Positions 14,784-15,834 of a DNA stretch of 49,854 nt are shown piece by piece. The DNA is from a virus. Its lineage: Duplodnaviria; Heunggongvirae; Uroviricota; Caudoviricetes. The translations under genes were made by a program, and so were the position numbers. The notes beneath the pieces were generated by a model. The model did no database searches, had not been told where the DNA came from, and was given only the letters and a program-made list of their open reading frames with translations. The stretch lies in IMG/VR virus record IMGVR_UViG_2529293239_000010. One strand, given 5' to 3'. Numbering within the stretch: position 1 is the stretch's first letter; each line of letters begins with the position of its first letter.

Positions 14784-15834
14784 ATGCTTAATACTGTAAA
14801 AATATCCAGTTGTGAGTTAATCAACGCCGACTGCCTGGAATTTATCCGGTCGTTACCCGAAAATTCTGTTGACCTGATAGTCACGGACCCGCCGTACTTT
14901 AAAGTGAAGCCTGAGGGCTGGGATAACCAGTGGAAGGGCGACGATGATTACCTGAAGTGGCTGGACCAGTGTCTGGCGCAGTTCTGGCGGGTGCTGAAAC
15001 CTGCCGGAAGTCTTTACCTGTTCTGTGGTCATCGCCTGGCATCTGATATCGAAATCATGATGCGTGAACGCTTCAGTGTGCTGAACCATATTATCTGGGC
15101 GAAGCCGTCCGGACGCTGGAACGGATGCAACAAGGAAAGCCTGCGGGCGTATTTCCCCGCCACAGAGCGCATTCTGTTCGCGGAACATTATCAGGGGCCG
15201 TATCGTCCGAAAGATGCCGGGTATGCGGCGAAGGGCAGTGCACTGAAACAGCATGTGATGGCCCCGCTGATTTCTTACTTTCGTGATGCGCGCGCGGCCC
15301 TGGGGATAACGGCAAAACAGATTGCAGATGCCACAGGAAAGAAAAACATGGTGTCGCACTGGTTCAGTGCCAGTCAGTGGCAGCTACCGAACGAAAGCGA
15401 TTATCTGAAATTACAGTCGCTGTTTGCCCGGGTGGCAGAAGAGAAACATCAGCGCGGTGAACTGGAAAAGCCCCACCACCAGCTGGTGGATACGTATACG
15501 TCACTGAACCGGCAGTATGTGGAGCTGCAGAGTGAATATAAGCATCTGCGGCGGTATTTTGGTGTGACGGCGCAGGTGCCGTACACGGATGTGTGGACAC
15601 ATAAACCGGTGCAGTTCTATCCCGGGAAACATCCGTGCGAAAAACCGGCAGAAATGCTGCAGCAGATAATCAGCGCAAGCAGTCGTCCGGGAGACCTGGT
15701 TGCAGATTTTTTTTATGGGCTCAGGTTCAACGGTAAAAGCTGCACTGGCGCTCGGGCGTCGTGCGATTGGCGTTGAACTGGAGACCGGACGTTTTGAGCA
15801 GACAGTCAGGGAAGTTCAGGATTTAATCGTTTGA
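14784..15834 (+). pseudogene. Phage DNA N6-adenine/N4-cytosine methyltransferase, C-terminal SAM-binding motif out of frame due to a T8 homopolymer
   Basis: DPPY catalytic motif (LIVTDPPYF); ORF ends at 15776 after DLVADFF, but removing one T from the T8 run at 15706..15713 restores ...DFFMGSGSTVKAALALGRRAIGVELE...DLIV ending at 15834, i.e. the FxGxG SAM-binding motif. Confidence 0.7.

Follow-up and report, generated by a model that had tools for sequence, protein, structure and literature searches.

The best-described relatives of the gene examined here are M.EcoGI and M.EcoGII, two prophage-encoded beta-class methyltransferases of Escherichia coli C227-11, each 349 amino acids (aa) long (Murray et al. 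2018, PMC5778455). In the same study, the two proteins are identical at 333 of 349 positions and share one layout, in which DPPY stands in the N-terminal part, FxGxG in the C-terminal part and a recognition domain in the centre; the target of M.EcoGII is adenine in any sequence context. Neither enzyme is expressed in the lysogen and attempts to express M.EcoGII constitutively were deleterious to the cell; expression of the pair is probably restricted to prophage induction (PMC5778455). Once the prophage is induced, enzymes of this type are thought to methylate the phage DNA broadly, with protection from restriction as the presumed benefit.

Related genes are carried by Stx-converting phages: putative methylase sequences lie downstream of the antiterminator gene Q in all Stx2a phages analysed in a study that also mentions 50-aa proteins (PMC10462455). 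As for Shigella, pseudogenes and evolution via the loss of genomic material have been noted in the literature on S. flexneri serotype 6, of which CCH060 is the archetype strain.

Here we describe a gene of the M.EcoGI/M.EcoGII type that carries one additional T, which places its AdoMet-binding motif I and its C-terminus out of frame.

Results

The window, i.e. the whole stretch of 49,854 nucleotides that we analysed, is a lambdoid prophage; among its close relatives, and on contigs of identical sequence, it adjoins ompW. Its methyltransferase pseudogene, of the M.EcoGI/M.EcoGII type (beta-class, N6-adenine), spans 14784..15834 (+). The gene is interrupted by a homopolymer of eight T at 15707..15714 (+), one base further right than the 15706..15713 first assigned to it. 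The run lies in the local context GCAGA-TTTTTTTT-ATGGG; more widely, the sequence reads CCTGGTTGCAGA, then TTTTTTTT, then ATGGGCTCAGG. The ancestral T7 derives from GAT TTT TTT, encoding Asp-Phe-Phe, and the eighth T is a +1 insertion.

With one T removed, a single ORF of 1050 nt (349 aa) is obtained; adding one instead (T9) does not restore the frame. The actual ORF is 330 aa long (14784..15776, +) and comprises the N-terminal catalytic and target-recognition regions as far as SRPGDLVADFF, followed by 18 out-of-frame residues (YGLRFNGKSCTGARASCDWR) and a stop. The rest of the gene is left over as a 44-codon ORF with a TTG start (15700..15834, +), whose translation, (M)QIFFMGSGSTVKAALALGRRAIGVELETGRFEQTVREVQDLIV, carries motif I and the C-terminus.

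The beta-class motif IV, (D/S)PP(Y/F), is present and intact as DPPY: by alignment to solved beta-class methyltransferases it corresponds to residues 35-38, with codons at 14886..14897 (+). The C-terminal FxGxG is not found in the frame of the start codon; it occurs as FMGSGST in the +1 frame only (15712..15732, +). In a motif alignment, the frameshift falls immediately before the D-x-F-M-G-S-G-T of PDB entries 9c3u/8urk, which are among the nearest solved structures along with M.RsrI, CcrM and M.MboIIA, all of them other beta-class enzymes. Searched against Pfam PF01555 (N6_N4_Mtase), the repaired ORF matches profile positions 1-219 of 221 (E 2e-44); the match of the unrepaired ORF ends at position 191 of 221. 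The original prediction had therefore read the lesion itself correctly: the extra T disrupts the methyltransferase after DLVADFF, its deletion restores the frame, and the SAM-binding motif and the C-terminus ending in DLIV are cut off, being encoded in the +1 frame. Judged by these matches, the gene is a member of the PF01555 family by descent, as a pseudogene and not as an intact member.

The repaired product is identical at 349 of 349 positions to that of the intact gene of E. coli O112ab:H8 Res13-Lact-EA06-22 (L001), and at 348 of 349 to WP_000935536.1 of E. coli O104:H4 C227-11, the one difference being A74V. In C227-11 the gene for WP_000935536.1 has the same neighbourhood as the window gene, and the neighbourhood of Q antiterminator, 65-aa ORF, methylase, three tRNAs and nanS-p-type esterase is a point of likeness with M.EcoGI/M.EcoGII. 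The length of 349 aa and the order of motifs, DPPY first and FxGxG last, are likewise common to the repaired product and the described enzymes. Given the near-identity to the C227-11 protein and these described features, we assign the window gene, on sequence grounds, as an orthologue of the M.EcoGI/M.EcoGII pair as a whole and not of one paralogue.

The genes around it follow the order Q, hairpins, 65-aa ORF, methylase, three tRNAs, about 1 kb of non-coding DNA, NanS-p-type esterase, and holin and lysis genes. The Q-type antiterminator gene (13388..14209, +) lies upstream of the methylase, the same gene order as in Stx phages, and two terminator-like hairpins (14292-14307 and 14620-14637) stand between them. 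Because of these hairpins, the methylase can be assigned, provisionally, to the Q-dependent late transcript. The three tRNA genes (15884..16133, +) follow the methylase immediately and have the anticodon CAU, Arg-UCG and Arg-UCU; the CAU tRNA is Met according to ARAGORN and Ile in the annotation of relatives. The esterase is found at 17109-18962. A short T-run after the hairpin downstream of Q (14308-14313, non-coding) is T6 in the window and T7 in E. coli L001, a further natural homopolymer difference of one base.

The layout of this late region is that of Stx-converting phages, in which stx sits between the tRNAs and the esterase; the window prophage differs from them in that no stx gene is present in the window. 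The methylases of Stx phages such as Stx2_EH2201, phiP27 and 1720a-02 occupy the same late-region position and share 84-96% nucleotide identity with the window gene. Unlike it, these genes are unbroken (352-354 aa), and their Asp-Phe-Phe codons form runs no longer than T6. In the window, the stretch from the tRNAs to the nanS-p-type esterase, the position of stx in Stx phages, is occupied by two tandem copies of the Rfam sRNA STnc100, at 16209-16399 and 16677-16886 (+; 136 and 165 bits, gathering score 47). The two copies are about 470 nt apart and each ends in an identical GC-rich hairpin, AGCCCCTCTCCGGAGGGGCT.

Other phages hold only the end of such a gene. About 200 Stx2a-phage records (H218-H221 and others) match residues 11-43 of the 44-aa tail and nothing else, and many O157-type Stx2a phages carry no more than a methylase 3' remnant of about 50 aa upstream of the tRNAs, with a lesion different from T8. 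The PHROG methyltransferase families also match the tail only. One of the entries, phrog_14488 (50 aa, tail match only), was considered as a recurrent case of the T-tract frameshift and rejected, as tblastn revealed a different lesion.

By exact-sequence look-up, the truncated product of 330 aa occurs in 56 indexed blocks of public assemblies. It is EIQ13189.1 / WP_005113091.1, named from S. flexneri CCH060, with a carrier contig of up to 4.66 Mb. Window positions 1-25776 (25.8 kb) are 100% identical to the CCH060 contig AKMW01000036.1. We read the tract directly in the assembled DNA of 13 in-lineage samples and found T8 in all 13. They comprise nine NCBI drafts (GCA_000267985, GCA_902503045, GCA_049894605, GCA_902504345, GCA_001184065, GCA_902503955, GCA_049894985, GCA_049895385 and GCA_902502095), the complete 4.70-Mb chromosome CP162059.1, the Nepalese gut metagenome ERZ4567471 from ENA, and Logan assemblies of two single SRA runs (ERR6004895 and SRR35925747). 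The look-up covered the 24 longest-contig blocks, with similar places collapsed, i.e. a subset of the genomes of the serotype 6 lineage; from the naming of contigs, most of the 13 samples appear to be short-read assemblies.

The T8 copies differ in private SNPs and in an IS3-family insertion near 21355-22661, which may be there, missing or of another type. In the ERZ4567471 contig there are also two patches of recombination, and the flank downstream is diverged; on these differences in SNPs, IS content and recombination, the copies are independent isolates. Five contigs picked by the deletion in a DnaC-like gene alone (see below) also span the methylase, and all five have T8. Among 10 places picked by their Q protein, which is very common, T8 is found in the one that lies within 1 SNP per 8.8 kb of the window; the other nine have T7, each at a distance of at least 6 SNPs per 7.7 kb. 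Two papers on S. flexneri serotype 6 gave nothing relevant on this prophage, its methylase or the platform used for sequencing.

Three assemblies (L005, L008 and L018) share a cluster of 7 SNPs in and just after tRNA-Arg(UCG), at 16011-16055, which looks like a small recombination patch. In the same three, the terminator T-run that follows the tRNAs (16165-16172) is T9 and not T8: a non-coding T-run thus varies within the lineage while the T8 of the methylase does not.

Outside the lineage the tract is T7 throughout. Among complete E. coli genomes, 40 of the 40 full-length gene matches listed have a span of 1050 nt. A 70-nt query matches 745 E. coli records, with a span of 69 nt in 60 of 60 of the matches listed; none of the 745 reaches 99% identity, and none has T8 with at most one SNP. 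A 44-nt query able to seed only on the T8 allele gave zero matches in 5,426 complete E. coli genomes, a collection that excludes Shigella. This absence from E. coli at first seemed to speak for an artefact; the exact-protein look-up then placed the allele in Shigella.

A pattern allowing T6 to T10 returned T7 in 56 of 56 sequences, namely 55 JGI metagenome contigs and E. albertii NBRC 107761. None of the 55 contigs carries the DnaC-like deletion and none closely matches the window. We sought T7 copies of the same lineage among these contigs and the 10 Q-protein places, and T7 occurred in diverged backgrounds only, with the DnaC-like deletion in no T7 copy. Neither T6 nor T9 was seen at the methylase tract, in or out of the lineage.

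The tract itself is not kept across homologues despite its synonymous alternatives. Diverged alleles encode the same DFFMGSGS by GATTTTTTC, GACTTTTTT or GATTTCTTC: at 84-96% identity, Asp-Phe-Phe is written as GAT-TTT-TTC, GAC-TTT-TTT or GAT-TTC-TTC. As related alleles break up the run by synonymous codons, with no change of amino acids, the T tract is, from this comparison, a by-product of Asp-Phe-Phe codon choice and not a conserved element.

A second gene of the prophage is also broken. The DnaC/IstB-like replication gene (8305..8817, +) is truncated to 170 aa instead of 248. It had been taken for a homopolymer indel like that of the methylase; the lesion is in fact not of a single base but a 4-bp (TTTT) deletion at ~8773, GAAAAATTTTTACAG having become GAAAAATACAG, and it is inherited in the lineage. 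The deletion lies just upstream of the DLLVLDE (Walker B-like) segment, and restoring TTTT gives exactly the intact 248-aa protein of a relative. Homopolymer miscalls do not typically take the form of a 4-bp loss. The truncated DnaC-like product occurs in 187 indexed blocks; both lesions, T8 and the 4-bp deletion, occur on every retrieved contig that spans both sites. With its DnaC-like product truncated, and the truncation co-inherited with T8, the prophage is probably replication-defective.

In one isolate (GCA_049895385.1, L014), a G>A change at window position 15098 adds a second stop to the methylase, leaving pieces of 104 aa and 142 aa. We read this as relaxed selection, such as one would expect in a gene that selection no longer maintains. 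An IS3-family insertion of ~1.3 kb (~21355-22661; ORFs 21406-21732 and 21729-22619, with HTH_Tnp_1 and rve domains) is placed between the lysis genes and a pair of convergent genes. It is present in CCH060 and absent in GCA_902503045 (L002); in GCA_049894605 (L004), an IS that is related to it but distinct sits about 45 bp from this point. The convergent pair lies between the lysis and terminase genes and consists of a P4-cII-like protein of 206 aa, annotated 'sce7726 family' (22745-23365, +), and a 355-aa 'Beta protein' (PF14350; 23307-24374, -); it may be accessory or defence cargo. With a lineage-fixed frameshift alongside a replication-gene deletion and IS3-family insertions in one prophage, the window resembles other cases of Shigella reductive evolution and differs from them in nothing notable: it is a typical one.

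Discussion

We consider it highly probable that the locus is a genuine, vertically inherited frameshift pseudogene, fixed in the S. flexneri serotype 6-type lineage. The proposed history is as follows. A lambdoid prophage integrated at ompW, with the layout of a Stx phage but without stx, carries an orphan methylase of the M.EcoGI/M.EcoGII type in its late region. The ancestral tract would be T7 (GAT-TTT-TTT), since T7 and an intact ORF are found in E. coli and E. albertii, and one replication-slippage event in the ancestor of the CCH060-type lineage would have turned it into T8. Translation now leaves the frame after DFF, keeping DPPY and the target-recognition region. As FxGxG and the last 37 residues are missing, no binding of AdoMet is expected, and the product is predicted to be catalytically dead. 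The allele would have become fixed beside other decay of the prophage, namely the 4-bp DnaC-like deletion, isolate-specific IS and, in one isolate, the second stop of the methylase. Fixation was probably near-neutral, as the prophage also lost its replication-loader gene and gained IS elements; one may speculate that loss of the methylase was mildly favourable, constitutive M.EcoGII being harmful.

The original prediction had left the choice between a sequencing error and slipped-strand phase variation, and neither holds up. That the true tract is T7 and the gene intact would be a natural suspicion: some platforms often miscount homopolymers, nothing but this single base separates the window gene from the closest E. 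coli genes, and a second frameshift lies in the same prophage. Such errors should be irreproducible in independent sequencing, though, and here T8 recurs in 13 separately sequenced NCBI, ENA and Logan samples, among them a short-read-style metagenome, the Logan assemblies and a finished chromosome; the same 4-bp deletion, equally reproducible in its 187 blocks, accompanies it in many independent assemblies and metagenomes. Random error would also occasionally give T8 in other backgrounds, where about 800 T7 sequences include none. We therefore hold an artefact to be extremely improbable. More generally, where reads are not at hand, a homopolymer frameshift can still be tested against sequencing error through the recurrence of its exact truncated product among independent assemblies. 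Phase variation, in which the tract would act as a contingency locus that frequently switches the methylase between on (T7) and off (T8), is very unlikely for reasons of another kind. Phase-variable methyltransferases exist in other bacteria, and the window gene resembles the mod genes of phasevarions (Haemophilus, Neisseria, Helicobacter) in having a homopolymer frameshift within a DNA methyltransferase ORF, i.e. a repeat tract whose length decides on the full product. It differs from them in that its tract is short, 7-8 T being little for a contingency locus, and has neither length polymorphism nor conservation: close isolates do not include both ON and OFF lengths. All in-lineage copies have T8, although they come from different countries and vary in IS content and recombination patches; all copies outside have T7, and T6 and T9 were seen in none. 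Synonymous codons break the run in relatives, which argues against any selection keeping it, and the second stop of one isolate is not reversible. Moreover, unlike the mod genes, the window gene belongs to a decaying prophage and appears to be a late phage gene that is not expressed; with a Q-dependent late gene whose orthologues are silent in lysogens, switching would not create alternative host methylomes or other epigenetic states.

Two further readings accept the frameshift as real and ask whether some activity could survive it. Polymerase slippage on U8/A8, or a +1 ribosomal shift on UUU-UUU-U, might produce an active enzyme at a low level. Slippage on A/T runs of 8-9 nt can rescue frameshifts, 8-nt runs being productive in some cases, and S. 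flexneri mxiE makes use of it (Baranov et al., PMC1088944); M.EcoGII-type enzymes are very active, such that a small amount could matter (PMC5778455). Selection against slippage-prone runs is, however, typically evident at 9 nt and not at 8 (PMC1088944). Programmed recoding would be expected to conserve two ORFs and a slippery run, an arrangement kept by no homologue, all of them being single-ORF with T7 or an interrupted run, and the extra stop in one isolate suggests no selection to keep the product. We regard leaky expression as very unlikely. If it did occur, with U8 slippage restoring the frame in a few % of transcripts as in mxiE, Q-dependent late transcription would bring a trickle of M.EcoGII-type non-specific adenine methylase. 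We give next to no credence to a split enzyme, in which the 330-aa fragment and the 44-aa motif-I peptide would form an active two-piece methyltransferase. A Shine-Dalgarno-like GGAG does stand five bases upstream of the TTG at 15700, and natural and engineered two-polypeptide methyltransferases are known. But the split is unique to one lineage and stems from the insertion of one base; as it cuts the gene where motif I begins, the peptide has only F-x-G-x-G and about 37 residues, and, given the extra stop in L014, no sign of selection is seen on the fragments.

Taken as an inherited pseudogene, the lesion is ordinary prophage decay and involves no new mechanism. Its biological weight is small: a late phage gene, silent in lysogens, was lost from a prophage that is also without its replication-loader gene, and the loss should not affect the host. 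Together, T8 and the 4-bp DnaC-like deletion make a stable marker of the S. flexneri 6-type prophage. The truncated protein is already in RefSeq, where WP_005113091.1 is labelled 'site-specific DNA-methyltransferase', yet it has lost the motif that binds the cofactor, and the intact enzymes related to it are non-specific.
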